Shown: piece by piece, positions 2,762 through 22,181 of the stretch
Layout: every line of letters begins with the position of its first letter
How positions within the stretch are numbered: position 1 is the first letter of the stretch
DNA from: an uncultured Flavobacteriales bacterium
GTDB lineage: Bacteria > Bacteroidota > Bacteroidia > AKYH767-A > 2013-40CM-41-45
Assembly (NCBI GenBank): GCA_964355885.1
Contig: CAYHFJ010000003.1
Location: 2,391 to 66,390 of the forward strand
Length of the DNA stretch: 64,000 nucleotides
Reading direction: 5' to 3'
Program-made: the position numbers and the translations under genes
Notes under the pieces: model-generated
Databases searched by the model: none
Told to the model about the DNA's origin: nothing
The model's input: the letters and a program-made list of their open reading frames with translations, nothing else

Positions 2762-4068
2762 ACAAAGCTATGAGCAATCCTAAAGAAGCAATTAAAGAAA
2801 AAAGCATGATCATTCAAAAACAGATGCTAAGCAATCTGTTTAAAGAATTAGGTACTGCAAAAGAAACAGGGAAAAAAGTCGTCTATACTTTTGTTCCCGG
2901 AAATCTTACAGAAATAATTCTTGCTCTTGATCTCCTGCCCGTGTATCCTGAAATCAATGCCTTGCAATCAGGCATGAGAAAACAATCGGGGACGTTTATT
3001 AAAGATGCCGAAAAATATGGACATTCCGAAGATGTCTGCACCTATGTAAAATGCGATATCGGCATGATGCTCAATGGAAATATCGGGCCTACCGGAGAAA
3101 AGATTCCCGAACCCGACATTTTATTATTGAGCTATACAGGTTGTTTCACATTTATGAAATGGTTTGAAAACCTGGAAAAAATTTATCCGAATGCTGAAAT
3201 CATCATGCTTCATACGCCATATCAGGAGAACGGAGAAATTACGGATGATATGGTGGAATACATGACAAAGCAATTAAAAAACGACGTGATTCCAAGAATG
3301 GAAAAAGTGGCCGGAAAAAAACTGGATTATAAAAAACTATCCAAAATATTATCCAATTCAGCAAAAGCGGAAGATTACTGGGTCAAAGTACTAGAATCCG
3401 CGAAGCATACACCCTCACCTATTGATTCATATTTCGCAGGAGTGTATTATATGGGTCCTATTTTCTCCGCATTCAGAGGCACAGAAGAAGCCGTTGAGTA
3501 CTACAAGGAACTGCTCTCTGAGGTGGAAGACAGGATTGAAAAAGGGCTGGGACCGGTCACGCCGGAAGGTGAAATGAAAGAAGAAAAATTCAGGCTGGTA
3601 GTGGAAGGGCCTCCAAACTGGACCAACTTCCGGGAGTTCTGGAAAATATTTTATGATATGGGAGCAGTCATCGTCGCGTCGACTTATACAAAGGTTGGCG
3701 GTGTCTATGATCAGGGATTTCGTCATGACCCGGATCATCCATTGGAAACCATGTCAAGATATTGCATGGGATGTTACACTAATTTAAATCTGCCACAACG
3801 AGTGGACTTGATCGAAAAGTATATAAAAGAATATAAAGCAGACGGCTTCCTTATCAATTCAATTAAGAGTTGCAATTCATTCTCAGCAGGACAGTTGTTG
3901 ATGATGCGGGAAATTGAACAAAGGCTGAGTGTTCCTGTAGGATTCATTGAATCAGATCTTGTAGATCCCAGATATTTCTCCTATGCAAACATTAAGAACA
4001 GACTTGAATCATATTTTCAAATGCTGGAGCAAAGAAAATTAATTATGTCACAAGAAATTATAAAATAA
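2752..4068 (+). CDS. bcrB: Benzoyl-CoA reductase beta-like subunit (HGD-D family, BcrB/BadE-like)
   Basis: 438 aa. HGD-D-like segments VVYTFVPGNLTEIILALDLLPVYPE, DVCTYVKCD, YTGCFTFMKW and IKSCNSFS. Overlaps the upstream stop by 10 nt; an alternative in-frame ATG lies at 2770. Confidence 0.6.
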   Translation: MGINKAMSNPKEAIKEKSMIIQKQMLSNLFKELGTAKETGKKVVYTFVPGNLTEIILALDLLPVYPEINALQSGMRKQSGTFIKDAEKYGHSEDVCTYVKCDIGMMLNGNIGPTGEKIPEPDILLLSYTGCFTFMKWFENLEKIYPNAEIIMLHTPYQENGEITDDMVEYMTKQLKNDVIPRMEKVAGKKLDYKKLSKILSNSAKAEDYWVKVLESAKHTPSPIDSYFAGVYYMGPIFSAFRGTEEAVEYYKELLSEVEDRIEKGLGPVTPEGEMKEEKFRLVVEGPPNWTNFREFWKIFYDMGAVIVASTYTKVGGVYDQGFRHDPDHPLETMSRYCMGCYTNLNLPQRVDLIEKYIKEYKADGFLINSIKSCNSFSAGQLLMMREIEQRLSVPVGFIESDLVDPRYFSYANIKNRLESYFQMLEQRKLIMSQEIIK

Positions 4069-4084
4069 TTCATAAACTGAAGAC

Positions 4085-5530
4085 ATGCAGAAGTATTATC
4101 TCGGAGTTGATTTAGGTTCGACAACATCCAAAGCTGTAATCATCAATGACAAAGATGAAATTATTGGTCGTGGAATCACGAACACCCGTGCCAATTATAA
4201 TGTAGCCGCCGACATTGCACGAATGGAGGCTATATATAATGCCCGATTTTCCATACTCAAAAAAAAGCTTGACACTGAAATCCAACAGAAACCTGAGTAT
4301 AGAAAATACATTTCGGATCTGGAAAATGTATTTCAATACGAACAATTCAAGGTGAGACTGGACAATCTGGGAGAAAAACTGATTACTACCTGTGAAAGTT
4401 TTTTCAAAGACGAAGAAACGAGGTCAAAGATGGTTGAGCAACTAAGGAATATCAGAAGGGCTTTCAAACCCAAAATTAAATACGAATATTTATATAAAAA
4501 TCTTAGTGATAAAAATCAATTCTTCAGAGATATTGTATCGGAAAGATACAATGAAGAAGTCAATAAACTTGACTCAAGTTTTTTTGAACCCTTGATGACG
4601 GTATGGGACAAAAGTATTACACCTGCAGAAAACGAAATTATAAATTTTGATTTCAAGGCTTTGGTACATATGGCCATGAACGTCTTGAAAGAAAAATATG
4701 ACAATCTTCCTGATTTGCCACAGAATACAAAGATTGTAGATGATGATGATTTTGATGTTGAATTATATTTGCTCAAAGGTGAGTTCGATCATGTTTCCAG
4801 TTCACTCCGAACTCATGTGGATGAAATCACCGACATAGAATTTCAAATTGAAAACATGACAGGAACAGGCTATGGCAGGGCACTGTTGCCATTTCCGGCC
4901 GATTGTATCCGATCAGAAATCCTTTGTCATGCATTTGGTGCTCATGCCTTTTTCCCGAATACCAGAACGGTACTGGACATTGGTGGTCAGGATACAAAAG
5001 CCATTCAGGTGGATCAATACGGCCTGGTTACCAGTTTTCAAATGAACGACAGATGTGCCGCCGGTTGCGGAAGATATCTGGGTTATATAGCTGATGAGAT
5101 GAGTATATCATTGAATGAACTGGGACCTTTAGCTATGAAAGCGGAAAAAGAAGTAACCATCTGTTCTACCTGCACTGTTTTTGCCGGAGCGGAATTGAGG
5201 GAATTGACAAATCTTGGAGAGAAACGGGAAGATATTCTTGGTGGGCTACATAAAGCAATTGTCATGCGTGCGATGTCTTTGCTCGCACGTTCAGGAGGTG
5301 TGTTCAATGAATTTACATTTACGGGTGGGGTGGCACGAAATCTATCAGTTGTAAAGCATCTTACAGATCTGGTAAAAGAAAATTACGGCGATAAAATTAA
5401 AATCAATATTCATACTGACTCCATATTTATGGGAGCCATGGGTGGGGCTATGTTCGCCAGAAGAAACATGCAAGCCATTGTACCTTCCAACAAACAAAAT
5501 TCCGTTCAAGAAAAACCGGCAACCGCCTAA
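4085..5530 (+). CDS. bcrA: Benzoyl-CoA reductase alpha-like ATPase subunit (BcrAD_BadFG/ASKHA family, long form)
   Basis: 481 aa. N-terminal phosphate loop YYLGVDLGSTTSKAVI, DIGGQDTKAI, and a cluster-ligand Cys pair in NDRCAAGCGRYLG and CSTCTVFAGAE. A ~200-aa insertion after the first loop makes it the large ATPase partner. Confidence 0.65.
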   Translation: MQKYYLGVDLGSTTSKAVIINDKDEIIGRGITNTRANYNVAADIARMEAIYNARFSILKKKLDTEIQQKPEYRKYISDLENVFQYEQFKVRLDNLGEKLITTCESFFKDEETRSKMVEQLRNIRRAFKPKIKYEYLYKNLSDKNQFFRDIVSERYNEEVNKLDSSFFEPLMTVWDKSITPAENEIINFDFKALVHMAMNVLKEKYDNLPDLPQNTKIVDDDDFDVELYLLKGEFDHVSSSLRTHVDEITDIEFQIENMTGTGYGRALLPFPADCIRSEILCHAFGAHAFFPNTRTVLDIGGQDTKAIQVDQYGLVTSFQMNDRCAAGCGRYLGYIADEMSISLNELGPLAMKAEKEVTICSTCTVFAGAELRELTNLGEKREDILGGLHKAIVMRAMSLLARSGGVFNEFTFTGGVARNLSVVKHLTDLVKENYGDKIKINIHTDSIFMGAMGGAMFARRNMQAIVPSNKQNSVQEKPATA

Positions 5531-5548
5531 ACCATCAAAGTTGAGACT

Positions 5549-6388
5549 ATGGAAACTATTTTAACAATGGGTATCGATGTTGGAAGTAATTTCATCAAAC
5601 TAATTTTAATGAAATATTCCGATGAGCCGGAAATTCTGGACAAGCAAACTGAAAAGATCAGAAAGCGTGACCCCATCTTTGTTGCTGATGAGATGGTACA
5701 AACCATGCTTACCAAGCATAAATTAAAATATAATGATATAGCCTATCTCGCTTCAACGGGAGAAGGTGATTTAGTCAAAAAAAAACGTGGGCATTTTTAT
5801 GGAATGACCACTCACGCGAAAGGTGCTCACTTTCTGTTTCCCGAAGCAAGAACAGTCGTAGATATGGGCGCACTATTTGTCCGGGCTATAAAAGTTGGGA
5901 GTGATGCACGTGTGCTTGATTATAAAATGACAGGGCAATGCGCTTCCGGTTCAGGGCAGTTTCTGGAAAACATATCGAGGTATCTTGGATTATCAATTGA
6001 AGAAGTTGGAGAGGTATCCATCAGTTCGGACAACCCGGAGGTATCATCAGGCATTTGTGCTGTTCTGGCAGAGACTGATGTCATTAATATGGTATCCAGA
6101 GGAGTTAGCACTCCGAACATCATAAAAGGTATTCATCTTTCCATCGCATCAAGAATTGTCAAGCTGTTAAGTTCACTCAAATCAGATTCTCCTATCATTT
6201 TAACCGGAGGAATGGCCTTGAATACCGGGATGATTCAAGCTCTCAATGAAAACATTCAGGAAAGCAGTAAGAAGTTTGAAATTAAAGCTTCTCCGGATTC
6301 CATTTATGCAGGTGCTATTGGCGCGGCGATATGGGGTGGTTACCGTCATTACAAACTAATAGAAAAAGCCGAAGTAGGGAACCAATAA
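5549..6388 (+). CDS. bcrD: Benzoyl-CoA reductase delta-like ATPase subunit (BcrAD_BadFG/ASKHA family, short form)
   Basis: 279 aa. Motifs MGIDVGSNFIKLIL, MTGQCASGSGQFLE, SSGICAVLAETDVI and LTGGMALN. A second, non-identical ATPase directly after the first, as expected for the heterodimeric BCR electron-activating module. Confidence 0.65.
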   Translation: METILTMGIDVGSNFIKLILMKYSDEPEILDKQTEKIRKRDPIFVADEMVQTMLTKHKLKYNDIAYLASTGEGDLVKKKRGHFYGMTTHAKGAHFLFPEARTVVDMGALFVRAIKVGSDARVLDYKMTGQCASGSGQFLENISRYLGLSIEEVGEVSISSDNPEVSSGICAVLAETDVINMVSRGVSTPNIIKGIHLSIASRIVKLLSSLKSDSPIILTGGMALNTGMIQALNENIQESSKKFEIKASPDSIYAGAIGAAIWGGYRHYKLIEKAEVGNQ

Positions 6389-6395: not shown

Positions 6396-8132
6396 ATGAA
6401 CATACTTCAATCCAGTCAGAAATTAAGCAGCACTTTCCCGAATATTGCAAGCCTATTGAAAACTAATACACAGCGGTTTTCCAATAGAATAGTTTATCAG
6501 GAAAAGGTCAAAGAAAATTATGAAGGCATCAGCTGGACAGATATTTACAATGACATTCTGAATATCGCCGGTAATCTTAAACAACTGGGTTTTTCAAAAG
6601 GTGATAAAATGGTTTTTTATTCACCCAACAGAAAGGAGATGCTCGAACTGGAATTGGCGGTGATGTCCATAGGCGGTATTGCGGTTCCTATCTACGCATG
6701 GTTTTCGCAAGAAACCGCTGAACTTTTAATCCGACACTCTGAAGCGAAATACCTGGCGGTATCAGGAGAATATCAACTACGAAATCTTTCATCAAACCTA
6801 GGTTTAAATAAAATCATTGTTTTTGATCCAATCGAAAGTTACCCGGGTTTAGGAAGGCTGGAGCTTTTCACTCATCTCCTGGAAGAAAGAAGCGATTCTT
6901 CTATTTCACTCGACATTCATGCATCCCCCGATGACAATTGCCTGAACATGTATACCTCCGGTACCATGGGCATTCCTAAATGTGTACAATTGTCACACAA
7001 AAATATACTATCCCAACAAGCCGGTTTGGATGCACTTGGCTGGTGGAATATCAATGAGAATGATCGATTTCTATCCTATTTACCATGGCATCACAGCTTC
7101 GGAGGGATATTTGAGTTATTCAATGCTCTTTCTCATGGAGCGACCTATTCACTGGAATCAAGCTATGGAAAGAATGTAAATAGCATTATTGAAAACTGGA
7201 AAATCATTCAACCTACTGTTTTTTTTAGTGTACCCAAAATTTATCAAGCTCTTTTCGAAATATTAAAAGAAAACCCTGAGGTAGAAGCACAGTTTTTTCA
7301 TCCCGATTTAAAATTTGTTTTTACTGCAGCGGCAACCTTACCTGAAAGTTTAACTAAAGAATTTGAAAAAAGAAATATTCCAGTAATAGAAGGATGGGGT
7401 CTTACGGAAACATCTCCTTGTTGCACGCTCACTCATCCAGGAATAAAAAGATCAAAAGGTATTGTTGGTAAACCCATTCCCGGGGTGAGTATCCGGATCT
7501 CTGACGACAATGAGATACAGGTTATGGGACCTAACGTAATGAAAGGTTATTTTAAAAATGACGAAGCCAATAAAAATATTTTTACAGAAGATGGATGGTT
7601 CAGAACAGGTGATATTGGAGAAATTACGGATGAAGGAATAAAATTAATTACCCGTAAAGATCGCATTTTCAAACTATCCAATGGAGAGAAAGTTATAGCC
7701 ACAGAGATGGAAGCACTTATCATGGCAAAATGCCATTACATTTCTTTTGCTATTGTATCAGGCAGCGGAGAGGAATATCCAGTGGCCATATTATTTCCCA
7801 ATAAAAAATTGTTACAAAACCCAACCTATGAAATCTCGCCGGTTGAAGGATGTTTTTGCCCAAGAAATCTTGCGGAGTTGGGCAAATGCTTACATGGTTG
7901 TCTTCATGACGCCAATTGTGGTATAGGGCAAAAATTCTCAAAAATAAAATCAGCGATTATCATTGATGATGAATTAAGCATTGAAAATAGTACGTTGACG
8001 CCATCCATGAAAGTGGCTCCTAATAATGTAATGAATATTTATAAGGCACATCTGGAAAATTTACATGGCGAAAAAAATGAATTAAAAGAAGAAGTTTTCA
8101 TCATCCGTTTAGACACCGCCAAAACAAGATGA
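6396..8132 (+). CDS. AMP-forming acyl-CoA ligase (ANL superfamily, long-chain/ACSL-like architecture)
   Basis: 578 aa. Motifs YTSGTMGIPKCVQLSHKN, GWGLTETS, TGDIGEITDEGIKLITRKDRIFKLSNGEKV and C-terminal LTPSMKV. Confidence 0.8.
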   Translation: MNILQSSQKLSSTFPNIASLLKTNTQRFSNRIVYQEKVKENYEGISWTDIYNDILNIAGNLKQLGFSKGDKMVFYSPNRKEMLELELAVMSIGGIAVPIYAWFSQETAELLIRHSEAKYLAVSGEYQLRNLSSNLGLNKIIVFDPIESYPGLGRLELFTHLLEERSDSSISLDIHASPDDNCLNMYTSGTMGIPKCVQLSHKNILSQQAGLDALGWWNINENDRFLSYLPWHHSFGGIFELFNALSHGATYSLESSYGKNVNSIIENWKIIQPTVFFSVPKIYQALFEILKENPEVEAQFFHPDLKFVFTAAATLPESLTKEFEKRNIPVIEGWGLTETSPCCTLTHPGIKRSKGIVGKPIPGVSIRISDDNEIQVMGPNVMKGYFKNDEANKNIFTEDGWFRTGDIGEITDEGIKLITRKDRIFKLSNGEKVIATEMEALIMAKCHYISFAIVSGSGEEYPVAILFPNKKLLQNPTYEISPVEGCFCPRNLAELGKCLHGCLHDANCGIGQKFSKIKSAIIIDDELSIENSTLTPSMKVAPNNVMNIYKAHLENLHGEKNELKEEVFIIRLDTAKTR

Positions 8133-8133: not shown

Positions 8134-9357
8134 ATGTTTGAAATAAAATGCAAAGAGAAGTTAAAGATATTGATGGACGGCTACTTCCAGTCATTCCTAA
8201 CAAAGGAAAAACCGGTAGCATGGTGTACCAGTGTGGGTCCGGCAGAGTTACTACGTTCTTTTGGATTCGAAGTTTATTTTCCGGAAAATCATGGTGCACT
8301 TTTAGGGTCCACCAGAACCGCGATGGATTTCATCCCAGCCTCAATCAAAAATGGTTATTCCAATCATATATGCTCCTACACTACAAGTGATATTGGAGCA
8401 TTCCTGTCTGGAAAGACTCCACTGGAAAAACACTATGGCCTATCTGCTGTTCCAACACCGGATTTGATCGTGTACAATACGAATCAATGCCGGGAGGTAG
8501 AAGACTGGTTTACCTTTTACGCGACACAATTTAATTGTCCTATTGCAGGAATTCATCCGCCAAGACATCTTAATGAGGTAAATCAAGATGTAATTGATTT
8601 AGTTGTGAAACAATTCAAATCAATTATTCCAATTTGCGAAAAAACTTCAGGAAATGAATTTGATATCGATCAATTCAGGGAGGTTCTGAGAATTAGCAAG
8701 GAAGCGACCTTGCTATGGAAAAAAGTATTAGAAACAGCAAGAGTGAGTCCGGCACCTATTTCATTCTTTGACGGCGTGATACATATGGGTCCTATCGTCG
8801 TTTTGAGAGGGCGGCAGGACGCTTACGATTATTATGCAGAGCTTCTTGCAGAATTGACGGAGTACAACAAAAACAAACAAGGATTTCTTGAAAAAGAAAA
8901 TAGTCGCATATTTTGGGAAGGAATGCCGATTTGGGGCAAACTAAGGATGATGTCGGATTTATTCAAAGAAAACAATGCCGCGGTAGTTGCCTCGACCTAT
9001 TGCAACAGTTGGATATTTGATGACTTTGACGAAAGGCAACCCTTTGAAAGCTCCGCACTGGCTTATACCCAATTATTTATCAACCGTAGCGAAAGTGTGA
9101 AAATGGAAATGCTGAAAAAATGGGTAGATGATTATCGTATTGATGGAATAGTCTTTCATGATACAAAGACCTGCTTTAATAATTCCAATGCCAAATTCGG
9201 AATGCCATTAAGAATAAAGGAAAAATATAAAATACCAACTTTGGTAATCGAAGGAGACCTTTGTGATTTACGATTTTTCTCCGAAGGACAAAGTATTACA
9301 AAAATCGAAACATTCCTTGAACAGATAGATGCAAAGAAACATACGGTTCAACAATGA
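8134..9357 (+). CDS. Orphan single HGD-D family protein (2-hydroxyacyl-CoA dehydratase / YjiM / double-cubane-cluster-protein-like)
   Basis: 407 aa. Family-typical segments PVAWCTSVGPAELLRSFGFEVYFPENH, NHICSYTTSD, NTNQCREV, ASTYCNSW and HDTKTCFNNS. The start lies 1 nt after the ligase stop, and its own stop overlaps the next start (ATGA). No second HGD-D partner gene is adjacent. Confidence 0.65.
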   Translation: MFEIKCKEKLKILMDGYFQSFLTKEKPVAWCTSVGPAELLRSFGFEVYFPENHGALLGSTRTAMDFIPASIKNGYSNHICSYTTSDIGAFLSGKTPLEKHYGLSAVPTPDLIVYNTNQCREVEDWFTFYATQFNCPIAGIHPPRHLNEVNQDVIDLVVKQFKSIIPICEKTSGNEFDIDQFREVLRISKEATLLWKKVLETARVSPAPISFFDGVIHMGPIVVLRGRQDAYDYYAELLAELTEYNKNKQGFLEKENSRIFWEGMPIWGKLRMMSDLFKENNAAVVASTYCNSWIFDDFDERQPFESSALAYTQLFINRSESVKMEMLKKWVDDYRIDGIVFHDTKTCFNNSNAKFGMPLRIKEKYKIPTLVIEGDLCDLRFFSEGQSITKIETFLEQIDAKKHTVQQ

Positions 9358-11204
9358 AAACTTCAGAAATACCGGATTATTCGAAATTTAAAATCGGCAT
9401 TATCGGAATGGGACCCGTAGGATCCATTTTGGCGATGCATTTTCAAGATGCAGGTTGCGAAGTAATTATATGCGATAAGGATAAAATTAAAATGAATGTA
9501 TTCCGAAAAGAAGGCGTTTTTTTCGAAGGCATCATTGACAAACACATAACCTTTAAAAATATCATCACTGATGTTAAGGAATTTTCAAAATACGAACCGG
9601 ATATTTTAATTTTTGCTTTAAAGAGTTATCAAACTAAAGAATGCGCAAATGATGTGTTCTCTTTTTTCAATGAAGAAAAACAAGTTGTCGTTAGTGCACA
9701 AAACGGAATTGATACGGAAAATATCCTTACAGATATTTTTGGGGAAAGTAATGTATTAAGAATGGTCATCAACTTTGCCGGCAACATCATCGCATCTAAT
9801 CGAATCCGATACACTTTTTTCATCCCACCAAATTATATTGCTTCCATCGATGACAGTAAAACAAAACTTGCAATAGCTATCGCTGAGAGCTTGAATAATG
9901 CACAAGCGGACACAGAAGCCATATCGTCTTTTGAAATGATTAAAAAAGTATGGGAGAAAACGATTTTAAATTCTTCTTTGAGTGCATTATGTGGAATCGG
10001 AAGGATGACAATGAAGGATGCCATGGAAATTCCGGATACGGTTGAAATTATACAACAAGTAATTGAAGAAGCTGTTGAAGTGGCTGAAAAGGAAAAAATT
10101 TATTTTGAAGATGATTTCATTCGTAAATGTATCCGGTATCTAAAAAAGGCCGGGAACCACTTCCCTTCACTGGCAGTGGATCTTATGAATAATCGCCCAA
10201 CTGAAATTGATTATTTTAATGGAAAGATTGTTGAATACGGCAGAAAGCATTATATCCGCACCGCGCTGAACCTGTCCTTCACCAATATGGTAAGGGCAAT
10301 GTCTCAAAAGAGTACGAATGCAATGTTACATGCAAGTCCGGAATTGATTTTTAAAAAAAAATCAGACGTTGTTTCAAATGGAGCAAAGCCTGATGGCAAG
10401 AAATCAAAAAACCAAGCGGCTTATCTGGGGGTTGATTTGGGTTCCGCCTTCATGAAATTTTGTGTAATTGATGAAGATGAGAACGTATTATTTCAAACAG
10501 CGATAAAAACATTGAACCGCGAAAAAGTAGCCTTTAAACATGTGCTTGATGCCATACATACCGAATACAACATTCAGTCAAGCTGCGCGACGGGTTACGG
10601 GAGAAAATATTTCGTGGAAGCTGAGATGGTAAAGACAGAAATTAACTGTGCCAATGCAGGTGTCTCGAAATACCTCAGCGGGAAAAAATGCATCATAGAT
10701 ATAGGAGGGGAAGACATTAAAATAATCCATTGCGATGAAAACAACAATGTTGACAATTTTTATTTGAACGATAAATGTGCTGCAGGTACAGGTTCCTTCA
10801 TCACTGAAATAGCTGAAAGAGCTGAAGTCAATGTGAAAGAGATGAGCCAACTTGCCCGTCAATCAGAATTCAAAAAGGAACTGAATAGTTTTTGTACAGT
10901 TTTCGCAAAGACAGAAATCATGAGTTGGCTTTTTGAAGGAGTACCCCTACCGGATATCACTAAAGGAATTTATATATCTATCGCGAATCGGGTGTCAAAA
11001 ATGCGTTTGGATACCAGCGTTCCTATCGTGATGATCGGAGGCGTTATTGCACATCACCCCTATCTTAAAGAAATACTGGAAAAACGATTGAATACATCTA
11101 TTCACATCATTGACCAGCCACAATTTGTTGCTTCCTATGGCGCTGCGATTATTGCCAAAGAAAAAGAGAAAATGAAAACTACAGAAGACACAGAAATTTT
11201 ATAA
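9354..11204 (+). CDS. Fusion protein: N-terminal ketopantoate-reductase-like (ApbA/PanE) NAD(P)-oxidoreductase, C-terminal BcrAD_BadFG-type [4Fe-4S] activase ATPase
   Basis: 616 aa in one uninterrupted frame. N-terminal part (nt 9354 to ~10300): KIGIIGMGPVGSILAMHF Rossmann loop, SAQNGIDTEN, WEKTILNSSLSALCG and SLAVDLMNNRPTEIDYFNG. A Lys-rich linker follows. C-terminal part (nt ~10416-11204): AYLGVDLGSAFMKFCVID, IDIGGEDIKII, NDKCAAGTGSFITE, NSFCTVFAKTEI and MIGGVIAHH. Confidence 0.75.
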   Translation: MKTSEIPDYSKFKIGIIGMGPVGSILAMHFQDAGCEVIICDKDKIKMNVFRKEGVFFEGIIDKHITFKNIITDVKEFSKYEPDILIFALKSYQTKECANDVFSFFNEEKQVVVSAQNGIDTENILTDIFGESNVLRMVINFAGNIIASNRIRYTFFIPPNYIASIDDSKTKLAIAIAESLNNAQADTEAISSFEMIKKVWEKTILNSSLSALCGIGRMTMKDAMEIPDTVEIIQQVIEEAVEVAEKEKIYFEDDFIRKCIRYLKKAGNHFPSLAVDLMNNRPTEIDYFNGKIVEYGRKHYIRTALNLSFTNMVRAMSQKSTNAMLHASPELIFKKKSDVVSNGAKPDGKKSKNQAAYLGVDLGSAFMKFCVIDEDENVLFQTAIKTLNREKVAFKHVLDAIHTEYNIQSSCATGYGRKYFVEAEMVKTEINCANAGVSKYLSGKKCIIDIGGEDIKIIHCDENNNVDNFYLNDKCAAGTGSFITEIAERAEVNVKEMSQLARQSEFKKELNSFCTVFAKTEIMSWLFEGVPLPDITKGIYISIANRVSKMRLDTSVPIVMIGGVIAHHPYLKEILEKRLNTSIHIIDQPQFVASYGAAIIAKEKEKMKTTEDTEIL

Positions 11205-11210: not shown

Positions 11211-12476
11211 ATGGTTAAAGGATTCTATAATAATACGAAGGGAATCGGGATTGTTTTTGAAGATACCTATCTTCTGAACGGTGCAAGAACGGCATTTGGG
11301 AAATACTGCGGAACTATATCACAGGTATCTCCGATTGATCTTGGGATATTTGCCAGTATAGCAGCAATAGAAAAATGCGGTATTCAGGCGCATGACATCA
11401 ATCAATCGATCATAGCGAATATTGGGCAGAGCTGTGGAGATGCTTATTTTTTACCAAGGTTTATCTCTCTTTATTCCGGTGTTCCTATAAGTGTTCCATC
11501 CTTAATGGTACAGAGAATTTGCGGATCCGGATTTGAAACCATTATTACAGCTTCAGAACAAATAATGCTCCAGAAGGGAGAAGTAATTCTTTGCTGTGGC
11601 ACGGAGAACATGTCGCTTTCGCCTACTGTCAGCTTTGGAAATCGAATGGGATATCCACTTGGAAAACCTGTATTCAAGGACATGCTATGGGAGGCCCTTG
11701 ATGATACTGCCGCCGGATATCCAATGGGATATACCGCTGAAAACGTGGCTACAAAACACCATATAAGCCGTCAGCAATGCGATGATTTCGCGGCACTTTC
11801 ATTTGACAGAGCTATGCAAGCAAAGGTCAATAAATTATTTGAAGAAGAAATCACCCCGGTAAACTCAAGAACCTTTGAAATAGATGGACTTCAACCAAGG
11901 AAAGTTAAATTACCTTCCGGAGCCGGCGTTTTTCAGTCAGATGAACATGTGCGCCAAACCAGTCTTGAAGCATTGGCAAAGCTGCCAACGGTTTTTTCAA
12001 AAATCGGCGTTCTTACCGCCGGTAATTGCAGTGGAATAGTTGATGGAGCTGCCAGTGTGATAGTAGGCACAAAAAAATATGCAGATAAAAATAAAATTAT
12101 ACCACTATCCAGAATCGTGGCGGCTGCAAGTTGCGGTATTGATCCAAAGATGATGGGATTGGGCCCTGTTCCCGCAATACGACTATTGCTTGAGTTAACC
12201 GGACTGAAAATAGAGGATATCGGCTTGTTTGAAATCAATGAAGCATTTTCCGCACAGATCATAGGTTGCGAAATAGAGTTAAACATTGACAGAAATAAAT
12301 TAAATGTAAACGGAGGAGCCATTGCCTTAGGGCATCCCCTTGCAGCCACTGGTACCAGACTTTCGCTCACCATTTCAAATGAAATGAAAAGAAGAAATAT
12401 TAAATATGGAATTGCTTCAGCTTGTATTGGTGGCGGACAAGGAACAGCTATTCTCTTTGAAAATATAACTATCTAA
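11211..12476 (+). CDS. Acetyl-CoA C-acyltransferase (thiolase II family)
   Basis: 421 aa. Motifs VQRICGSGFETI (nucleophile Cys), NVNGGAIALGHPLAATG and ASACIGGGQGTAILFE. Confidence 0.85.
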   Translation: MVKGFYNNTKGIGIVFEDTYLLNGARTAFGKYCGTISQVSPIDLGIFASIAAIEKCGIQAHDINQSIIANIGQSCGDAYFLPRFISLYSGVPISVPSLMVQRICGSGFETIITASEQIMLQKGEVILCCGTENMSLSPTVSFGNRMGYPLGKPVFKDMLWEALDDTAAGYPMGYTAENVATKHHISRQQCDDFAALSFDRAMQAKVNKLFEEEITPVNSRTFEIDGLQPRKVKLPSGAGVFQSDEHVRQTSLEALAKLPTVFSKIGVLTAGNCSGIVDGAASVIVGTKKYADKNKIIPLSRIVAAASCGIDPKMMGLGPVPAIRLLLELTGLKIEDIGLFEINEAFSAQIIGCEIELNIDRNKLNVNGGAIALGHPLAATGTRLSLTISNEMKRRNIKYGIASACIGGGQGTAILFENITI

Positions 12477-12478
12477 AA

Positions 12479-13540
12479 ATGAAAAATCAGATTTATCAAT
12501 GGCAAATGACAGAACCTGGAAAGCTGTTTGAGTTGATAAAAATACAATTTCCGGAATTAAAAGAAGACGAAGCATTGGTAAAAATTGCCGGTTGTGGAGT
12601 ATGTCACACTGACGTGAGTTTCTGGCATTCAGGTGTGAAAACAAAACATGCCTTACCTCTAACGCTTGGACATGAAATTAGTGGAACTGTATTGGAAGGC
12701 CCTCCGGCATTGAAAGGAAAAAATGTGATTGTTCCTGCGGTTCTTCCTTGTGGTGAATGTGAACTATGCAAAAATGGGAGAAGCAATATCTGTAGAAACC
12801 AGAAAATGCCAGGCAACGATTTTCATGGAGGATTTGCATCCCATATTGTTGTTCCACATCGCTATTTGTGTACTGTTCCGGATGCGATATTGAAAAAATA
12901 TTCATTGGAACAACTGGCCGTTATAGCCGATGCAATATCAACACCCTATCAGGTAATTAAAAAGTCTGAATTGGAGAAAGGTGATCTTGCCATCATCATT
13001 GGAGTTGGTGGTGTCGGAGTTTATGGCGCCTTGTTGGCAAAAATCAAAGGAGCGAAAGTAATCGCCCTTGATATTGATGATAAAAAATTAAATAGAGCAA
13101 AAGAGCATAATATTGACGCGGTACTAAACACCAAAGGGTTGGAATTAAAATCCATCAAATCAAAAATAAGAGATCTGGCAAAGGAAATTGGAGCTCCTGA
13201 TTATTCTTGGAAAATATTTGAATTTTCCGGCACAAGGGCCGGCCAGGATCTTGCATTTAATTTAATCACCTATGCCTCCACTCTTTCCATTGTTGGATTT
13301 ACAATGGATAAGCTGGAACTGCGCTTAAGCAATCTGATGGCCTTCGACGCTAAACTTATCGGAACATGGGGTTGTAAGCCGGAGTTGTACCCGGAAGTAC
13401 TTGCACTCATCGCGGATGACAAACTAAAAATAGATCAGTTTGTACAAACCATTCCCATGTCAAAAATAAATGAAGTATTTCAAAATACACTGGAGCATCA
13501 TTACATTATGCGTCCGGTTTTAATTCCTGATTTTGTTTAA
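12479..13540 (+). CDS. had: Zn-dependent medium-chain alcohol dehydrogenase; by context 6-hydroxycyclohex-1-ene-1-carbonyl-CoA dehydrogenase (Had-like)
   Basis: 353 aa. Motifs GCGVCHTDVSFWH, GHEISGTV, structural Zn site CGECELCKNGRSNIC and IIGVGGVGVYG. Immediately upstream of the Oah-like gene. Confidence 0.6.
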   Translation: MKNQIYQWQMTEPGKLFELIKIQFPELKEDEALVKIAGCGVCHTDVSFWHSGVKTKHALPLTLGHEISGTVLEGPPALKGKNVIVPAVLPCGECELCKNGRSNICRNQKMPGNDFHGGFASHIVVPHRYLCTVPDAILKKYSLEQLAVIADAISTPYQVIKKSELEKGDLAIIIGVGGVGVYGALLAKIKGAKVIALDIDDKKLNRAKEHNIDAVLNTKGLELKSIKSKIRDLAKEIGAPDYSWKIFEFSGTRAGQDLAFNLITYASTLSIVGFTMDKLELRLSNLMAFDAKLIGTWGCKPELYPEVLALIADDKLKIDQFVQTIPMSKINEVFQNTLEHHYIMRPVLIPDFV

Positions 13541-13551
13541 AATAAAACTGC

Positions 13552-14667
13552 ATGAAAACATTAAACAACCACAATCTTATTGACACTACTTACACGGATA
13601 TTATTTATGAAAAAAAACCCTGCCTTGAATCAGACGGGAGTCAAGTTAATGGGCTGTTTAATGTATGGATATATCTAAATAACCCAAAGCAATTCAACTC
13701 TTACACCACAAGAGCGGTCAAAGAAATAATTCTGGCATTCAGGCAGGCATCCAATGACCGCAGTGTCGTCGCGGTAGTATTCACAGCGGTTGGCGACAGA
13801 GCATTCTGCACCGGAGGGAATACGAAGGAGTATGCCGAGTACTATTCAGGAAATCCACAAGAATACTCTCAGTATATGCGTTTATTCAATGACATGGTGA
13901 GTACAATTTTATTTTGTGAGAAACCGGTCATATGCCGGGTGAATGGAATGCGTATCGCCGGAGGGCAAGAAATCGGAATGGCGGCGGATTTCACAATAGC
14001 CACCGATTTAGCCAGATTCGGTCAGGCTGGTCCAAAACATGGAAGTGCGGCGATTGGAGGTGCCACTGATTTCCTTCATCTATTTGTTGGAATAGAAAGA
14101 GCCATGCAGTCGTTAACACTTTGCGAACCTTGGTCAGCACATCAGGCATATATGTATGGCCTTATATCCGAAGTAGTTCCTGCATTGAAAGTTGCCGGAA
14201 AGTTTATCCCCAATCCACTAGTTATATCCGATCGATGGATAGATGAATATGGAAAAATCATATTTGGCGCTTCAAAGACAGGAGAAGCACTTTCTAAAGG
14301 AAAAGAGGTAATGGCCATGGGTGAGATTGATCTTTCACTTCTGGATGAAGCGGTAAATAAATTAATAACAAAACTTCTTTATACATTTCCCAATTGCACC
14401 AATAAAACTATTAGTGAGTTAAGAAAAAAGAAGCTTGAACATTGGGATAAAAATAAAGAAAATAGCCGGGAGTGGCTTGCATTGAATATGATGACAGAAG
14501 CCAAAGCGGGTTTCAGAGCATTCAACGAAGGGCCTAAAGATAATCGCGAAGTTGACTTTGTTAAACTACGCCAATTACTTTCAGAAGGGAAAGAATGGAA
14601 TGATGAAATGATCAAAAATATATCTCCACAGTATAAAATGAAAAAGAATGAAATTGGAAAAAATTAA
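13552..14667 (+). CDS. oah: 6-oxocyclohex-1-ene-1-carbonyl-CoA hydrolase (ring-cleaving crotonase, Oah/BamA-like)
   Basis: 371 aa, the long crotonase form. QFNSYTT (nt 13690-13710) and GQEIGM (nt 13963-13980) correspond to the peptide stretches encoded by the standard degenerate bamA marker primers (QYNSYTT and GQEIGM, recalled from memory). Also AFCTGGNTKEY. Confidence 0.7.
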   Translation: MKTLNNHNLIDTTYTDIIYEKKPCLESDGSQVNGLFNVWIYLNNPKQFNSYTTRAVKEIILAFRQASNDRSVVAVVFTAVGDRAFCTGGNTKEYAEYYSGNPQEYSQYMRLFNDMVSTILFCEKPVICRVNGMRIAGGQEIGMAADFTIATDLARFGQAGPKHGSAAIGGATDFLHLFVGIERAMQSLTLCEPWSAHQAYMYGLISEVVPALKVAGKFIPNPLVISDRWIDEYGKIIFGASKTGEALSKGKEVMAMGEIDLSLLDEAVNKLITKLLYTFPNCTNKTISELRKKKLEHWDKNKENSREWLALNMMTEAKAGFRAFNEGPKDNREVDFVKLRQLLSEGKEWNDEMIKNISPQYKMKKNEIGKN

Positions 14668-15427
14668 ATTCGAATATCAACATAATGGCGAAGTTGCTCA
14701 AATAATTCTGAATGATGGTAAAGGGAATGTTCTTGACTCCATCATGATGGATGAACTATCATTCGTTTTACAAACTATCAAAGAAAAAAAAGAGGTCAAA
14801 CTTATTACTTTTGAAGGTTCCGGAAAACACTATTCGTATGGAGCAAGTGTAGAAGAGCACAAAAAAGATTCTGCACCAACAATGATTCGTTCGTTTCATC
14901 AACTATTTTATGCATTAAAACTTTTATCCATACCTACGCTTTCGAAAATTAGTGGAAATTGTTTAGGCGGAGGAATGGAGCTGGCAATTATGTGCAATTT
15001 TATTTTTGCCGATAAAACCGCCAAACTTGGACAACCAGAAATTATACTTGGTGTTTTCCCGCCCCCAGCCTCTATCATTCTTCCAGAAAAAATTGGCTTA
15101 GCCAGAGCGGAAGAGATATTGCTTACAGGTAAAATCTACTCTGCCGAAGAAACAAAAACCATGGGATTAGTAAATGAGGTTCTGGAAAACAAAGCGGCTC
15201 TGGACGATTATGCCGAAAATTGGATTGTCCAGCACATACTGCCTAAAAGTGCATCCTCTTTAAGGTATGCTGTAAAGGCATCCAGAATGAAATTTAATCA
15301 CCTTCTTACTAATTTTTTACCTCAACTGGAAGATTTATACTTAAAACAACTAATGCAAACAAATGATGCCAATGAAGGAATTAATTCCTTTCTGGAAAAA
15401 AGAAAAGCGGTTTGGGAGAATTGTTAA
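14648..15427 (+). CDS. dch: Enoyl-CoA hydratase family; by context cyclohexa-1,5-diene-1-carbonyl-CoA hydratase (Dch-like)
   Basis: 259 aa crotonase fold (FEGSGKHYSYGASVEE, GNCLGGGMELAIMCNFIFA). 20-nt overlap with the oah-like gene. Confidence 0.55.
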   Translation: MKLEKIKFEYQHNGEVAQIILNDGKGNVLDSIMMDELSFVLQTIKEKKEVKLITFEGSGKHYSYGASVEEHKKDSAPTMIRSFHQLFYALKLLSIPTLSKISGNCLGGGMELAIMCNFIFADKTAKLGQPEIILGVFPPPASIILPEKIGLARAEEILLTGKIYSAEETKTMGLVNEVLENKAALDDYAENWIVQHILPKSASSLRYAVKASRMKFNHLLTNFLPQLEDLYLKQLMQTNDANEGINSFLEKRKAVWENC

Positions 15428-15437
15428 ATCAACTATA

Positions 15438-17429: not shown

Positions 17430-18040
17430 TTTCTGATTCAAAAACATCAGCGCTAATTCTTGCGGCAGGAAACTCTTCCAGAATGAGAACCCAGAAAGCA
17501 CTTCTCCGATTTGAAGACGAAAACACTTTTCTCGAAAACACAATTGAAACTTATATTCGATTTGGAGTTGAACAGCTCGGAGTTGTCGTCTCTCCCCTAT
17601 TGGCACAACAAATCCCCACTAAAATCAAGTCGGCTTTAAGACATCCCAACGTTCTTCTAATAATCAATGAATCTCCTGAAAAGGGGCGATTCTCCTCTAT
17701 AAAATTAGGTCTTTCCGCCTTGAAAGATTGCGACTATTGTTTTCTGCAAAACATTGACAACCCTTTCATTGATCAATATTTACTAAACATAATTTACGAA
17801 TACAAAAATAAGGGTGGATATACAGTGCCCTATTTTAATGATAAAGGTGGCCACCCTATTTTAATTTCAAATAAAATTATTACATACATAAAAAGAACTC
17901 CTGACCACAATATAAATTTGAGACATCTGCTAACCCTGTTTCAAAAGGTTATTGTAAACACAGGCGACCATAAAATTCTCGCGAACATCAACTCACCACT
18001 TGATTATAAGTACTATTTTCAAACAGTAAAATTAACATAA
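17426..18040 (+). CDS. MobA/MocA-like molybdenum-cofactor nucleotidyltransferase
   Basis: 204 aa. Motifs ALILAAGNSSRM...KALL and KGGHPILI. ATGA overlap with the upstream gene. Confidence 0.6.
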   Translation: MISDSKTSALILAAGNSSRMRTQKALLRFEDENTFLENTIETYIRFGVEQLGVVVSPLLAQQIPTKIKSALRHPNVLLIINESPEKGRFSSIKLGLSALKDCDYCFLQNIDNPFIDQYLLNIIYEYKNKGGYTVPYFNDKGGHPILISNKIITYIKRTPDHNINLRHLLTLFQKVIVNTGDHKILANINSPLDYKYYFQTVKLT

Positions 18041-18042
18041 GC

Positions 18043-22180: not shown

Positions 22181-22181
22181 T

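Follow-up and report, generated by a model that had tools for sequence, protein, structure and literature searches.

Why should a ketopantoate-reductase-like domain and a [4Fe-4S] activase ATPase be made as one polypeptide, and what reaction would such a protein serve? The question is raised by a 64,000-nt stretch of a contig from an uncultured Flavobacteriales bacterium, here called the window. In it, the initial annotation had described one uninterrupted 616-aa frame joining an ApbA/PanE-type oxidoreductase, a Lys-rich linker and a complete BcrAD_BadFG activase, a fusion of which its author knew no described example. Two readings were offered: (a) together with the neighbouring ligase and HGD-D genes, the protein forms a compact route from a 2-oxoacid via a 2-hydroxyacyl-CoA to an enoyl-CoA, or (b) the NAD(P)-binding domain serves electron entry or regulation of the activase. 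The features of the locus, all on the + strand, are:

1598..6388, +: BcrC, BcrB, BcrA and BcrD of a Thauera-type class I benzoyl-CoA reductase (BCR; TIGR models)
6396..8132, +: AMP-forming acyl-CoA ligase with a Cys-rich C-terminal domain at ~7656-8108 (domain matches, Cys motif)
8134..9357, +: solitary alpha-type HGD-D protein, presumed catalytic partner of the activase (PF06050, 201 bits)
9354..11204, +: fusion gene, 616 aa, with KPR-family dehydrogenase, linker and [4Fe-4S] activase ATPase (ORF, domain matches)
9390..10307, +: KPR/ApbA-PanE-type domain, residues 13-318, putative NAD(H) 2-oxoacid reductase (Pfam ApbA and ApbA_C, TIGR00745)
10308..10421, +: variable, probably disordered linker, residues 319-356, with a T5A9 run (identity, pLDDT)
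10422..11162, +: acyl-CoA dehydratase activase ('archerase') domain, residues 357-603 (BcrAD_BadFG, TIGR00241)
11211..17429, +: thiolase, Had, Oah, Dch and a 3-hydroxyacyl-CoA dehydrogenase/enoyl-CoA hydratase fusion (TIGR03201, TIGR03200, TIGR03189, domains)
17426..23111, +: MocA-like cytidylyltransferase, hemerythrin-like protein, SDR, and 4-hydroxybenzoyl-CoA-reductase-like gamma-alpha fusion and FAD subunit (cluster end)

The frame and its three parts were borne out. The ORF at 9354..11204 (+) opens with an ATG and runs without interruption for 616 aa, and by Pfam and NCBIfam matches residues 13-318 form the ApbA/PanE domains and residues 357-603 a complete BcrAD_BadFG activase, on either side of a 38-aa, Lys-rich linker (residues 319-356). 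The linker contains a T5A9 homopolymer (10349-10362), and an indel in such a run could in principle join or break frames. Its mean pairwise identity among homologues was 16%, compared to 64-66% for both domains, and pLDDT fell below 50 at residues 321-349 of the predicted structure. The fusion ATG overlaps the stop codon of the HGD-D gene (ATGA at 9354-9357), which suggests that the two genes are translationally coupled. The same homopolymer, and the split forms found in other phyla, are what one might expect if the single frame were an assembly or sequencing artefact joining two genes. However, the linker DNA was identical in three assemblies, the window and the independent assemblies ENA ERZ4201063 (L086) and Logan SRR24858484 (L087), and more than 120 homologue clusters (90% identity), each of 600-650 aa, have both domain sets. 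The linkers of these fused homologues are 29-43 aa long and unrelated in sequence, and the fused forms group as a coherent clade. Because the linker DNA recurs in other assemblies, the architecture is shared by so many clusters, and the domains are conserved while the linker varies, the fusion gene is real and widely conserved; we give an artefact practically no chance. The 616-aa product is in fact already on record from a 66.5-kb NCBI contig, and the architecture is common, with hundreds of database entries labelled '2-dehydropantoate 2-reductase'. In agreement with the initial annotation, literature searches found no described fusion of a PanE-type dehydrogenase with an activase.

PanE and activase are adjacent separate genes in Zixibacteria, Fidelibacterota and Deferrimicrobium, and roughly half of the lineages encode the PanE domain as a protein of its own. 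Both the split form and the commonness of the fused one had escaped the initial annotation. Trees built for PanE and for the activase are congruent and imply no fewer than two events of fusion or fission; the fusion thus arose, or split, at least twice. Since the split genes are adjacent, the fusion derives from an older operon. We regard it not as a new catalytic principle but as a 'Rosetta stone' in which two neighbouring genes, coupled in translation, have been joined; it would fix stoichiometry and perhaps dimerisation.

The N-terminal part matched ApbA/PanE profiles (PF02558 and PF08546) above cut-off, a match on which the initial annotation had made its proposal depend: Pfam ApbA covers residues 14-154 (75 bits, cut-off 22.2), ApbA_C residues 195-316 (99.3 bits, cut-off 22.7), and NCBIfam TIGR00745 apbA_panE scored 149.1 bits (cut-off 141.35). 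Every motif that it had named was found, unchanged across an alignment of 21 homologues, namely G18-x-G20-x-x-G23, N117-G-I and T283-E-I-D-Y-F-N-G in this domain and, in the activase, the DLGS loop and both cluster Cys. N117, K202, S272 and E284 are also invariant in this alignment and line up with motifs that 2EW2 and 3WFI carry, 'LLNG', 'YRK' and 'PSM...TEIDY'. The catalytic residues of E. coli KPR are N98, K176 and E256; in the 1KS9 match, where query residues 197-315 pair with chain residues 171-287, the offset sets K202 on K176. Full conservation of these residues is as would be expected for a working dehydrogenase. Among solved structures, two Enterococcus KPR-family proteins, 2EW2 (82 bits) and 3WFI (65 bits), come closest, while the true ketopantoate reductase of E. 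coli, 1KS9, reached 23 bits. A role as a true 2-dehydropantoate 2-reductase in pantothenate synthesis was rejected, with every equivalog model far under its cut-off (NF005092, for instance, scored 112 with a cut-off of 500, and NF005091 109 with one of 252) and the locus being one of aromatic catabolism. As in 3WFI, beta-2 ends with an Asp (D41), which suggests use of NAD(H). Enterococcus and Lactococcus KPR-family enzymes are NADH-dependent D-2-hydroxyacid dehydrogenases (10.1101/2024.01.05.573888).

The C-terminal part matched Pfam BcrAD_BadFG (residues 358-601, 131 bits, cut-off 31.5) and NCBIfam TIGR00241 CoA_E_activ (176.1 bits, cut-off 125.4). The DLGS (D361-L-G-S), DIGGED and GGV motifs, C475 and C514 are invariant in the 21 aligned homologues, and the two Cys align with Cys127 and Cys166 of HgdC in the PDB alignment. 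HadI (4EHT, 143 bits), MbdQ and HgdC (1HUX) were the top PDB matches. Family, ASKHA phosphate loops and the Cys pair together mark the domain as an activase, predicted to hold a [4Fe-4S] cluster that bridges a dimer. Given that the two domains are physically fused, that the fusion recurred at least twice and that the neighbourhood lacks a ferredoxin gene, the NAD(P)-binding domain could be imagined as a built-in electron entry or redox sensor controlling the activase, with no metabolic role. This was reading (b), and it was not supported: a flavin or FeS site for passing from hydride to single electrons is absent, the substrate-side residues N117, K202, S272 and E284 are invariant, and the domain is a free protein in so many lineages. 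We consider it very improbable.

The initial annotation had correctly placed an AMP-forming ligase (6396-8132) and an HGD-D protein (8134-9357) next to the fusion but had missed that all three lie in an operon for the anaerobic breakdown of benzoyl-CoA. TIGR02263, TIGR02260 and TIGR02261 matched the Bcr genes over their cut-offs, with TIGR02259 at 437 bits and BcrB (2752-4068) at 701 bits. Downstream, TIGR03201 and TIGR03200 scored over their cut-offs, TIGR03189 gave 210 bits, and thiolase and 3HCDH+ECH domains were found; these genes together are the lower benzoyl-CoA pathway plus beta-oxidation. The next gene past the cluster, at 23329, encodes an unrelated serine palmitoyltransferase. Operon carriers are Bacteroidota and related phyla (FCB-group bacteria). 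The order BcrCBAD, CoA ligase, solitary HGD-D, PanE plus activase, then Had, Oah and Dch recurs in 20/21 related loci, which span at least six phylum-level groups. HGD-D directly precedes PanE/activase in all loci but one, L089, where it lies upstream of PanE with the activase, ACD and a transporter between them and where a sodium:solute symporter joins the module. BcrCBAD was not seen in L089 beside the module and Had/Oah/Dch, but an N-run cuts the region and the absence is therefore unsafe. In L010 and L013, loci with a different BCR type, HGD-D is 53-55% identical and thus does not co-vary with BcrC.

The HGD-D protein is nearest the HadB alpha subunit, both in a profile comparison of sequences (206 bits) and in predicted fold (Foldseek TM 0.87-0.89), ahead of BzdO/MbdO, DCCP and beta subunits. 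Its cluster Cys C80, C119 and C347 align with the ligands of HadB and BzdO, and the PENH glutamate is retained. Against equivalog models it scored 211 bits for HadB (cut-off 750), 164 for BcrB (TIGR02260, cut-off 486.6), 67 for TIGR03191 (cut-off 448.6) and 57.5 for DCCP (NF040772, cut-off 350). Assignment as the catalytic subunit of a class I BCR (BcrB/BzdO) was rejected on the TIGR02260 and TIGR03191 scores and on the presence of the genuine BcrB. DCCP was also rejected, the C6 position being Asn, the spacing 31/80/119/290/347 departing from the motif and NF040772 being under its cut-off; the resemblance is partial (C1- and C5-like Cys). Two features of HGD-D had gone unnoticed in the initial annotation. 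One is the missing partner: no second HGD-D gene besides BcrB and BcrC, and so no beta subunit, was found in the 21 related loci or the window. The closest relatives outside the cluster do have a beta gene, and every 2-hydroxyacyl-CoA dehydratase characterised to our knowledge is an alpha-beta heterodimer. The other is a set of family-specific Cys, C31, C135 and C290, of which C31 and C290 are invariant in 121/121 homologues and C135 is usually kept (Val in L089). They lie on or adjoin double-cubane ligand positions, with C31 and C290 at or beside C1 and C5; these two are also close to the cluster site. BzdO Trp46, which fills the lost sub-cluster site, is replaced by an invariant Gly, and at C6 there is an invariant Asn (N317), a residue shared with all catalytic alpha/O subunits. 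Such extra Cys would not be expected of a plain dehydratase.

These features raise the alternative that HGD-D and the activase form a compact ATP-dependent reductase, BCR-like or DCCP-like, in place of a dehydratase. The substrate of a homodimeric HGD-D with an extra FeS site would be a benzoyl-CoA analogue (e.g. hydroxylated benzoyl-CoA) or some other compound of the pathway; its reduction would leave a ketone for the KPR-type domain to reduce in turn, and the ligase would be the (hydroxy)benzoate-CoA ligase of the pathway. The Cys positions and the Gly fit this proposal, as do the module's fixed place between BcrCBAD and Had/Oah/Dch, the lack of visible BcrCBAD in L089 (subject to the N-run) and the BcrB and HadB scores (164 and 211 bits), by which HGD-D is nearly equidistant from both. 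HGD-D is moreover solitary like the homodimeric DCCPs, also paired with one activase (PMC7317905). Against this stand the Asn at C6, the loss of C135 in L089, the sub-threshold DCCP and BcrB scores, the HadB-like predicted fold and the conservation in the PanE domain of S272, a carboxylate-binding Ser. The KPR-family enzymes known to us also take 2-oxo acids as substrates rather than CoA esters bearing a ring ketone. We consider such a reductase unlikely, at clearly lower odds than a dehydratase.

What activates the substrate? No family III CoA-transferase occupies this position; an AMP-forming ligase or ADP-forming acyl-CoA synthetase is there instead. Whatever its type, the CoA-activating gene lies directly upstream of HGD-D, except in L089. 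The ADP-forming enzyme replaces the ligase in four loci (L004, L005, L011 and L089), taking its position in three and lying directly downstream of HGD-D and activase in L089. Because the enzyme class was swapped, it is the function that selection maintains. The Cys-rich C-terminal domain of the ligase also occurs as a free-standing ORF. Searched against solved benzoate-CoA ligases, the ligase gave no match at E<=1e-20 except MatB chimeras, and by these searches it appears to lie outside the clade of canonical benzoate-CoA ligases. Its top solved relatives are dicarboxylate activators (oxalate, malonate), at a weak 100-120 bits or so. This affinity, the reversible ADP-forming synthetase in four loci, the lack of ferredoxin and glutaryl-CoA dehydrogenase genes in the cluster and a three-subunit 2-oxoacid:ferredoxin oxidoreductase within the L004 cluster would suit a module acting on 2-oxoglutarate/(R)-2-hydroxyglutarate. 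It would join the glutaryl/glutaconyl-CoA end of the pathway to 2-oxoglutarate, possibly in reverse, and 2-oxoglutarate would then feed an oxidoreductase reducing the BCR ferredoxin. However, most loci carry the effectively irreversible AMP-forming ligase, NADH-linked 2-hydroxyacid dehydrogenases favour reduction, neither glutaconyl-CoA decarboxylase nor non-decarboxylating glutaryl-CoA dehydrogenase is linked, and the PDB similarities are weak. We regard this as improbable, more so than the reductase.

We therefore favour reading (a), in which ligase, HGD-D, PanE and activase form a self-contained route from 2-oxoacid through (R)-2-hydroxyacid and its CoA ester to enoyl-CoA, with a probability of about 0.5. 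The PanE domain would reduce a 2-oxoacid with NADH to the (R)-2-hydroxyacid, the ligase (in some genomes the ADP-forming synthetase) would make the CoA thioester, the activase homodimer with its bridging [4Fe-4S] cluster would use ATP to drive a single priming electron, and HGD-D, presumably a homodimeric dehydratase, would remove water by ketyl-radical chemistry at its own [4Fe-4S] cluster. Genes for all four functions adjoin one another in a constant order in 20/21 loci of at least six phylum-level groups. This reading is favoured by the PanE catalytic residues and the family-level but not equivalog-level match of that domain, the HadB likeness of HGD-D with its cluster Cys and glutamate, the linked CoA-activating gene that persists across a change of enzyme class, the distance of the ligase from solved benzoate-CoA ligases and the congruent trees. 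In addition, the closest HGD-D relatives outside the cluster adjoin AMP ligases, and one adjoins a LarA-type 2-hydroxyacid racemase. As the module is locked into an operon of BCR, Dch/Had/Oah, beta-oxidation and 4-hydroxybenzoyl-CoA reductase, phenylpyruvate and 4-hydroxyphenylpyruvate are the most economical and likeliest substrates, a guess from context. Dehydration would yield cinnamoyl-CoA and 4-coumaroyl-CoA, which the hydratase, dehydrogenase and thiolase of the operon would shorten to benzoyl-CoA and 4-hydroxybenzoyl-CoA; the 4-hydroxybenzoyl-CoA reductase genes needed by the tyrosine branch accompany the cluster in most loci. The synteny thus points to an undescribed feeder route into the benzoyl-CoA operon, possibly from phenylalanine and tyrosine, and if so, proteolytic FCB-group bacteria would have an anaerobic route for both amino acids. 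On the other side, the cluster has no conserved aromatic aminotransferase (the candidate in the window is the serine palmitoyltransferase), HGD-D has no beta gene and bears the extra Cys, the ligase could be an unusual benzoate-CoA ligase, leaving the module without its own activating enzyme, and the fusion couples the first step, 2-oxoacid reduction, to an accessory of the third, dehydration, skipping the thioester step between them. Peripheral pathways are usually variable, and the invariant position of the module could mean service to the core benzoyl-CoA pathway.

More tentatively, the solitary Cys-enriched HGD-D, the PanE-linked activase and the Cys-rich ligase domain (also free-standing beside HGD-D) may together represent an unrecognised type of ATP-driven FeS radical enzyme, an integral and obligatory part of benzoyl-CoA degradation of the FCB type. 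One possibility is a homodimer retaining part of the double-cubane site, and then the first physiological CoA-ester reaction for the DCCP-like branch; the other is the key enzyme of a new anaerobic route from phenylalanine and tyrosine to benzoyl-CoA via aryllactyl-CoA dehydration.

How does the module compare with known systems? With Enterococcus D-mandelate dehydrogenase and Lactococcus lactis PanE, the N-terminal domain shares the two-domain fold family, the catalytic Asn/Lys/Glu, the 'PS..DL....TEIDY.NG' motif and the Asp at the end of beta-2, at only ~25-30% identity; unlike them, it is fused to, or in an operon with, an activase. The class I BCRs (BcrCBAD, BzdNOPQ, MbdONQP) draw on the same HGD-D and BcrAD_BadFG families, here in the same operon, but have two of each gene where the module has one, and the BcrB, BcrA and BcrD equivalog models score far under their cut-offs. 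The one-HGD-D, one-activase arrangement resembles DCCP/DCCP-R of Carboxydothermus hydrogenoformans and YjiM/YjiL of E. coli. DCCPs carry the 7-Cys motif CX19CX18-19CX29CX166-170CX32-34CX32C, six Cys of which ligate [8Fe-9S] (PMC7317905), and the window protein matches C1, C3, C4, C5 and C7. Its C6 is Asn, however, NF040772 falls short, and fold and sequence are nearer the catalytic alpha/O-type subunits; unlike DCCP it is linked to a CoA ligase, so a CoA-ester substrate is likely. A close parallel is the C. difficile (R)-2-hydroxyisocaproyl-CoA dehydratase system (LdhA, HadA, HadI, HadBC), whose ldhA-hadA-hadI-hadBC layout appears in L027, together with the related phenyllactate system of Clostridium sporogenes (FldH/FldA/FldI/FldBC). 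The same four roles are present: D-2-hydroxyacid dehydrogenase, CoA activation, ATP-dependent [4Fe-4S] activator and HGD-D catalytic subunit. HadI and HadB are the top matches of activase and HGD-D, and the three cluster Cys are held in common. In the window, however, the dehydrogenase is of the KPR/6-PGDH-like family and fused to the activator, not of the 2-Hacid_dh family; an ATP-dependent ligase, AMP- or ADP-forming, replaces the CoA-transferase; the beta subunit and acyl-CoA dehydrogenase/ETF are lacking; and HGD-D has two to three extra invariant Cys. The setting, too, is a benzoyl-CoA degradation operon of FCB-group bacteria, in contrast to the fermentation operon of the Firmicutes.

The fusion gene lies within a co-directional, tightly packed cluster (1598-23111), a context that the initial annotation had not taken in.

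1598-6388 (+): BcrC, BcrB, BcrA and BcrD, a Thauera-type class I benzoyl-CoA reductase (BCR)
6396-8132 (+): AMP-forming acyl-CoA ligase
8134-9357 (+): HGD-D, a solitary alpha-type protein of the dehydratase family
9354-11204 (+): fusion of a ketopantoate reductase (KPR)-type dehydrogenase (PanE) and an activase
11211-17429 (+): thiolase; Had and Oah, both equivalog-level matches; Dch; 3-hydroxyacyl-CoA dehydrogenase/enoyl-CoA hydratase protein
17426-23111 (+): MocA, hemerythrin-like protein, SDR and 4-hydroxybenzoyl-CoA-reductase-like subunits

We compared 21 related loci (handles beginning with L) from Bacteroidota, Ignavibacteria, Calditrichota, Zixibacteria, Marinimicrobia/Fidelibacterota, Deferrimicrobium and one unclassified MAG. 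The order BcrCBAD, CoA-activating enzyme, HGD-D, PanE/activase and Had-Oah-Dch is kept, with one exception, wherever the contig reaches, and HGD-D lies 5´ of the dehydrogenase gene in all 21 loci, directly so except in L089. The real finding is this invariant four-gene insert (CoA-activating enzyme, HGD-D, dehydrogenase and activase, here called the module) in an otherwise textbook operon; the fusion itself is a modest surprise. A genome scan with the single fusion protein returned no loci and an alignment-based scan was needed, in which 65 of 80 loci were ordinary activases because the scan patterns are activase-generic. L089 (Zixibacteria, CP070766.1) encodes, at 4235-14091, HGD-D, a divergent activase, an ADP-forming synthetase, a sodium:solute symporter, PanE, Had, Oah and Dch, and no BcrCBAD was found in the 4 kb upstream of its module. 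A run of N cuts the N-terminus of HGD-D there, so L089 proves nothing about the absence of BcrCBAD and was dropped as an example of a module without it.

To our knowledge, class I BCR pathways have been studied almost exclusively in Proteobacteria. A distinct, highly syntenic version of the pathway is shared by Bacteroidota, Ignavibacteriota, Calditrichota, Zixibacteria, Marinimicrobia/Fidelibacterota and Deferrimicrobium, and this FCB-type/Deferrimicrobium version always has four extra genes. We found no description of the module or of its link to benzoyl-CoA metabolism in the literature on BCR, PanE/KPR, dehydratases or Bacteroidota.

Several neighbours were noted in passing. The protein at 15363-17429 has an N-terminal 3HCDH and a C-terminal ECH domain, the reverse of the FadB order, and the ORF as listed shares 65 nt with Dch, so its true start is probably later. 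A hemerythrin-domain protein (18043-18573), possibly a sensor of oxygen or iron, or a protectant, sits inside this anaerobic cluster and is conserved in L002, L003, L006, L011 and L082. One 918-aa protein (19424-22180) combines the gamma (2Fe-2S) and alpha (Mo) subunits of the 4-hydroxybenzoyl-CoA-reductase-like enzyme, which are separate genes in L084 and L085. The class I/II aminotransferase after the cluster (23329-24561) was rejected as a phenylalanine transaminase: it scores above the equivalog cut-off for the CFB-type serine palmitoyltransferase of sphingolipid synthesis, is not syntenic elsewhere and has no bearing on the finding. Together with T9SS tails in the window, it points to a host from Bacteroidota. 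No weight was given to a HisC-like gene in L013 or to a tryptophanase in L001, each a single-locus neighbour; the latter (122-1021, tryptophanase/tyrosine-phenol-lyase family) lies directly 5´ of BcrC in one Flavobacteriales MAG and may be a coincidence. Farther along the window are a 2994-aa T9SS-sorted surface protein with 21 CHU_C Ig-like repeats plus CotH and lamin-tail domains (36054-45038, -) and a 1411-aa ORF with zero Pfam matches (58485-62720, -).

The initial annotation had read 9354-11204 as one uninterrupted frame, and it is indeed a single ORF of 616 aa, with three Pfam domains far above the gathering thresholds: ApbA (residues 14-154), ApbA_C (195-316) and BcrAD_BadFG (358-601). 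NCBIfam models likewise recovered the proposed ApbA/PanE-type N-terminal part (TIGR00745, 149.1 with a cut-off of 141.35) and the C-terminal activase (TIGR00241, 176.1 with a cut-off of 125.4), and every motif that the initial annotation had named (GxGxxG, NGI, TEIDYFNG, DLGS and two Cys) was recovered and shows no variation across 21 aligned homologues. In the alignment with the HgdC activator (1HUX), the activase cysteines C475 and C514 match Cys127 and Cys166, which ligate the bridging [4Fe-4S] cluster. The concern that a frame error in the linker had joined two genes was justified, since the linker contains a T5A9 homopolymer. However, DNA across the linker is identical in two other assemblies from different accessions, the identical 616-aa product is also recorded from an NCBI contig of 66.5 kb, and the protein database contains, at 90% identity, more than 120 clusters of proteins of 600-650 aa that combine the two domain sets. 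The mean pairwise identity of 21 homologues is 64% for the dehydrogenase part, 66% for the activase part and 16% for the linker (29-43 aa), the signature of two functional domains on a flexible tether. The identical linker DNA, together with so many fused clusters with conserved domains and a variable linker, effectively rules out an artefact. In the AlphaFold model pLDDT falls below 50 at residues 321-349; with a mean pLDDT of 74 and a pTM of 0.46, its inter-domain geometry is not reliable.

As the initial annotation had supposed, the fusion appears undescribed: we found no publication on it in the literature on BCR, KPR, 2-hydroxyacyl-CoA/phenyllactate dehydratases or Bacteroidota. In sequence databases this architecture is frequent; at NCBI and JGI it bears the name '2-dehydropantoate 2-reductase', and hundreds of entries so called are misannotated. 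At 50% identity the full-length architecture has 3 representatives among 1.84 billion proteins; it is one family, numerous but narrow.

The dehydrogenase domain passes the family model, yet no ketopantoate-reductase equivalog model of NCBIfam was matched. Among solved structures it is nearest to 2EW2 of E. faecalis (82 bits), then to 3WFI, the D-mandelate dehydrogenase of E. faecium (65 bits); E. coli KPR scored 23 bits. A preprint summarising Wada 2008 and Chambellon 2009 (10.1101/2024.01.05.573888) describes Enterococcus/Lactococcus 'PanE' as NADH-dependent D-2-hydroxyacid dehydrogenases misclassified as KPR. Residues N117, K202, S272, D276 and E284 are invariant, and beta-2 ends in an Asp, as it does in 3WFI, a feature that points to NADH as the likely cofactor. 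The activase domain is closest to HadI (143 bits), followed by MbdQ, HgdC and DCCP-R. The initial annotation had also considered that the NAD(P) domain might be an electron entry or regulatory device for the activase. The conserved catalytic residues and the existence of split forms contradict this, and the domain has no cofactor to split a hydride; we give the idea very little credence.

These split forms, with a dehydrogenase of 315-324 aa and an activase of 252-269 aa, occur in L009, L012, L013, L014, L015, L084, L085 and L089; the two genes are adjacent in all but L089, and some overlap. The split dehydrogenase family has ~350 members. Neighbour-joining trees of the dehydrogenase and activase halves are congruent: one clade, from Bacteroidota, Ignavibacteria and Calditrichota, is fused throughout, and the other is mostly split, with the fused L010 and P0242 nesting beside the split L013. 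The congruent trees and the split forms indicate that a KPR-type dehydrogenase was already associated with HGD-D and activase before the fusion arose, and that fusion or fission took place at least twice. The fusion joined translationally coupled neighbours in a Rosetta-stone event; no new domain was invented.

No benzoate-CoA ligase of known structure is a strong relative of the ligase. In four loci an ADP-forming acyl-CoA synthetase (CoA_binding_2, Succ_CoA_lig, ATP-grasp_5) substitutes for it, and this non-orthologous replacement indicates that CoA activation beside HGD-D is the function under selection. The C-terminal domain of the ligase (7656-8108, residues ~421-571) carries a family-specific Cys motif, KC...EGCFCPR...C-x3-C, that is absent from related ligases (L058). 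It persists as its own ~150-aa ORF between HGD-D and the fusion in L004, L005, L011 and L008, in copies that have lost the catalytic 'TPSMK' loop and kept the cysteines. The L008 contig ends short of the position of the CoA-activating gene, so that ligase replacement together with a free domain is seen in the other three.

L004: ADP-forming synthetase in the ligase position, 6016-8157; free-standing C-domain, 9519-9989
L005: ADP-forming synthetase in the ligase position, 1503-3701; free-standing C-domain, 5028-5468
L011: ADP-forming synthetase in the ligase position, 6106-8256; free-standing C-domain, ~9517-9948
L008: free-standing C-domain, 1218-1541
L089: ADP-forming synthetase just 3´ of HGD-D and activase, 6298-8388

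In a profile comparison HGD-D scored highest against the HadB alpha subunit (206 bits), followed by MbdO (152), BzdO (108), the double-cubane cluster protein (DCCP, 36) and HadC (20). Its predicted fold (pLDDT 82) gave TM values of 0.87-0.89 to HadB, 0.81-0.84 to MbdO/BzdO, 0.77 to DCCP and 0.64-0.71 to beta/N subunits. The three cluster ligands C80, C119 and C347 (BzdO C95, C128 and C380) and the PENH glutamate are kept. We know of no characterised 2-hydroxyacyl-CoA dehydratase that is not an alpha-beta pair, and the nearest relatives of HGD-D outside the cluster (32-37% identity) are such pairs, in beta-alpha-activase trios beside AMP ligases; the trio of L058 also adjoins a LarA-type 2-hydroxyacid racemase and an SDR. 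No beta-subunit gene to partner HGD-D was found in the window or in any of the 21 related loci. HGD-D is unlikely to be an alternative partner of BcrC, because it keeps 53-55% identity where the BCR type shifts to ~31%.

HGD-D also has extra cysteines: all 121 sequences keep C31 and C290, and 119 of them keep C135 (Val in L089). The double-cubane ligands of BzdN are C36, C73, C100, C263, C293 and C327 (PMC11971306). In an alignment with a BzdN-like beta subunit that matches the published Cys spacing, C290 coincides with ligand position 5 and C31 is at most one residue away from position 1. Position 6 is taken by an invariant Asn, which is the case in all catalytic subunits; BzdO Trp46, which fills the gap left by the lost sub-cluster, has an invariant Gly35 as its counterpart. 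HGD-D was rejected as a DCCP because the model score was 57 versus 350 and the 7-Cys motif was not matched. HGD-D may still hold an additional metal site, perhaps a built-in relay replacing the beta subunit or the remnant of a second sub-cluster. The missing beta subunit, the extra cysteines near double-cubane positions and the Cys-rich ligase C-domain surviving as a free ORF keep alive the explanation that HGD-D and the activase act as a compact reductase that depends on ATP and is part of the ring pathway proper, which we nevertheless consider unlikely. In the window BcrC (1598-2761, Thauera-type) only a three-Cys pattern (C79, C106, C331) is present; a double-cubane cluster, as in BzdN, is unlikely there since the C1, C5 and C6 ligands are missing.

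We favour, at a probability of about 0.5, the route from 2-oxoacid to enoyl-CoA that the initial annotation had put forward. The dehydrogenase domain would reduce a 2-oxoacid to the (R)-2-hydroxyacid with NADH, the CoA-activating enzyme would convert this to the 2-hydroxyacyl-CoA, and HGD-D, as a radical dehydratase with its ATP-dependent activase, would form the enoyl-CoA. This order fits the natural thermodynamic direction of an NADH-linked 2-oxoacid reductase and an AMP-forming ligase. The four roles do stand side by side as proposed; the lack of a beta subunit, the additional cysteines and the Cys-rich C-domain fit the route poorly. The sole clue to the substrate is the operon, whose other enzymes use benzoyl-CoA and 4-hydroxybenzoyl-CoA and which also encodes a hydratase/dehydrogenase, an SDR and a thiolase. 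On this basis aromatic substrates, phenylpyruvate and 4-hydroxyphenylpyruvate, are a tentative suggestion. Phenylpyruvate would yield cinnamoyl-CoA and 4-hydroxyphenylpyruvate 4-coumaroyl-CoA, and one round of beta-oxidation would take these to benzoyl-CoA and 4-hydroxybenzoyl-CoA. Arylpyruvate substrates would account both for the 4-hydroxybenzoyl-CoA reductase that accompanies the cluster and for the occurrence of the cluster in proteolytic FCB-group bacteria.

L004 encodes, between Oah and Dch (16948-19582), a three-subunit 2-oxoacid:ferredoxin oxidoreductase with a VorB-type alpha subunit above the cut-off, a candidate electron donor system for BCR; the window's cluster shows no ferredoxin gene. 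Its location inside the cluster would suit a module that links 2-oxoglutarate and 2-hydroxyglutarate, possibly in reverse, and feeds a ferredoxin-reducing 2-oxoacid oxidoreductase. Such a link would neatly provide the electrons for BCR but is at odds with the AMP-forming ligase of most loci, and we regard it as quite improbable.

If the module does feed arylpyruvates through aryllactyl-CoA to cinnamoyl-CoA, proteolytic anaerobes, which are abundant in sludge, sediments and groundwater, would have a new means of mineralising aromatic amino acids that does not depend on the phenylacetate/phenylglyoxylate route. A beta-less HGD-D with extra conserved cysteines also bears on how this family of radical enzymes evolved between double-cubane proteins, reductases and dehydratases (PMC11971306, Fuchs et al. 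2025), and the module is worth cloning for specialists in anaerobic aromatic metabolism or FeS radical enzymes.

The clostridial systems Ldh/HadA/HadI/HadBC and FldH/A/I/BC comprise the same four roles (dehydrogenase, CoA activation, radical dehydratase and ATP-dependent activator), and it is this correspondence that favours the 2-oxoacid-to-enoyl-CoA route. Compared with the HAD systems, however, the module draws its dehydrogenase from another family and fuses it to the activator, activates with CoA by means of a ligase, and has a catalytic subunit that is beta-less and enriched in cysteine.
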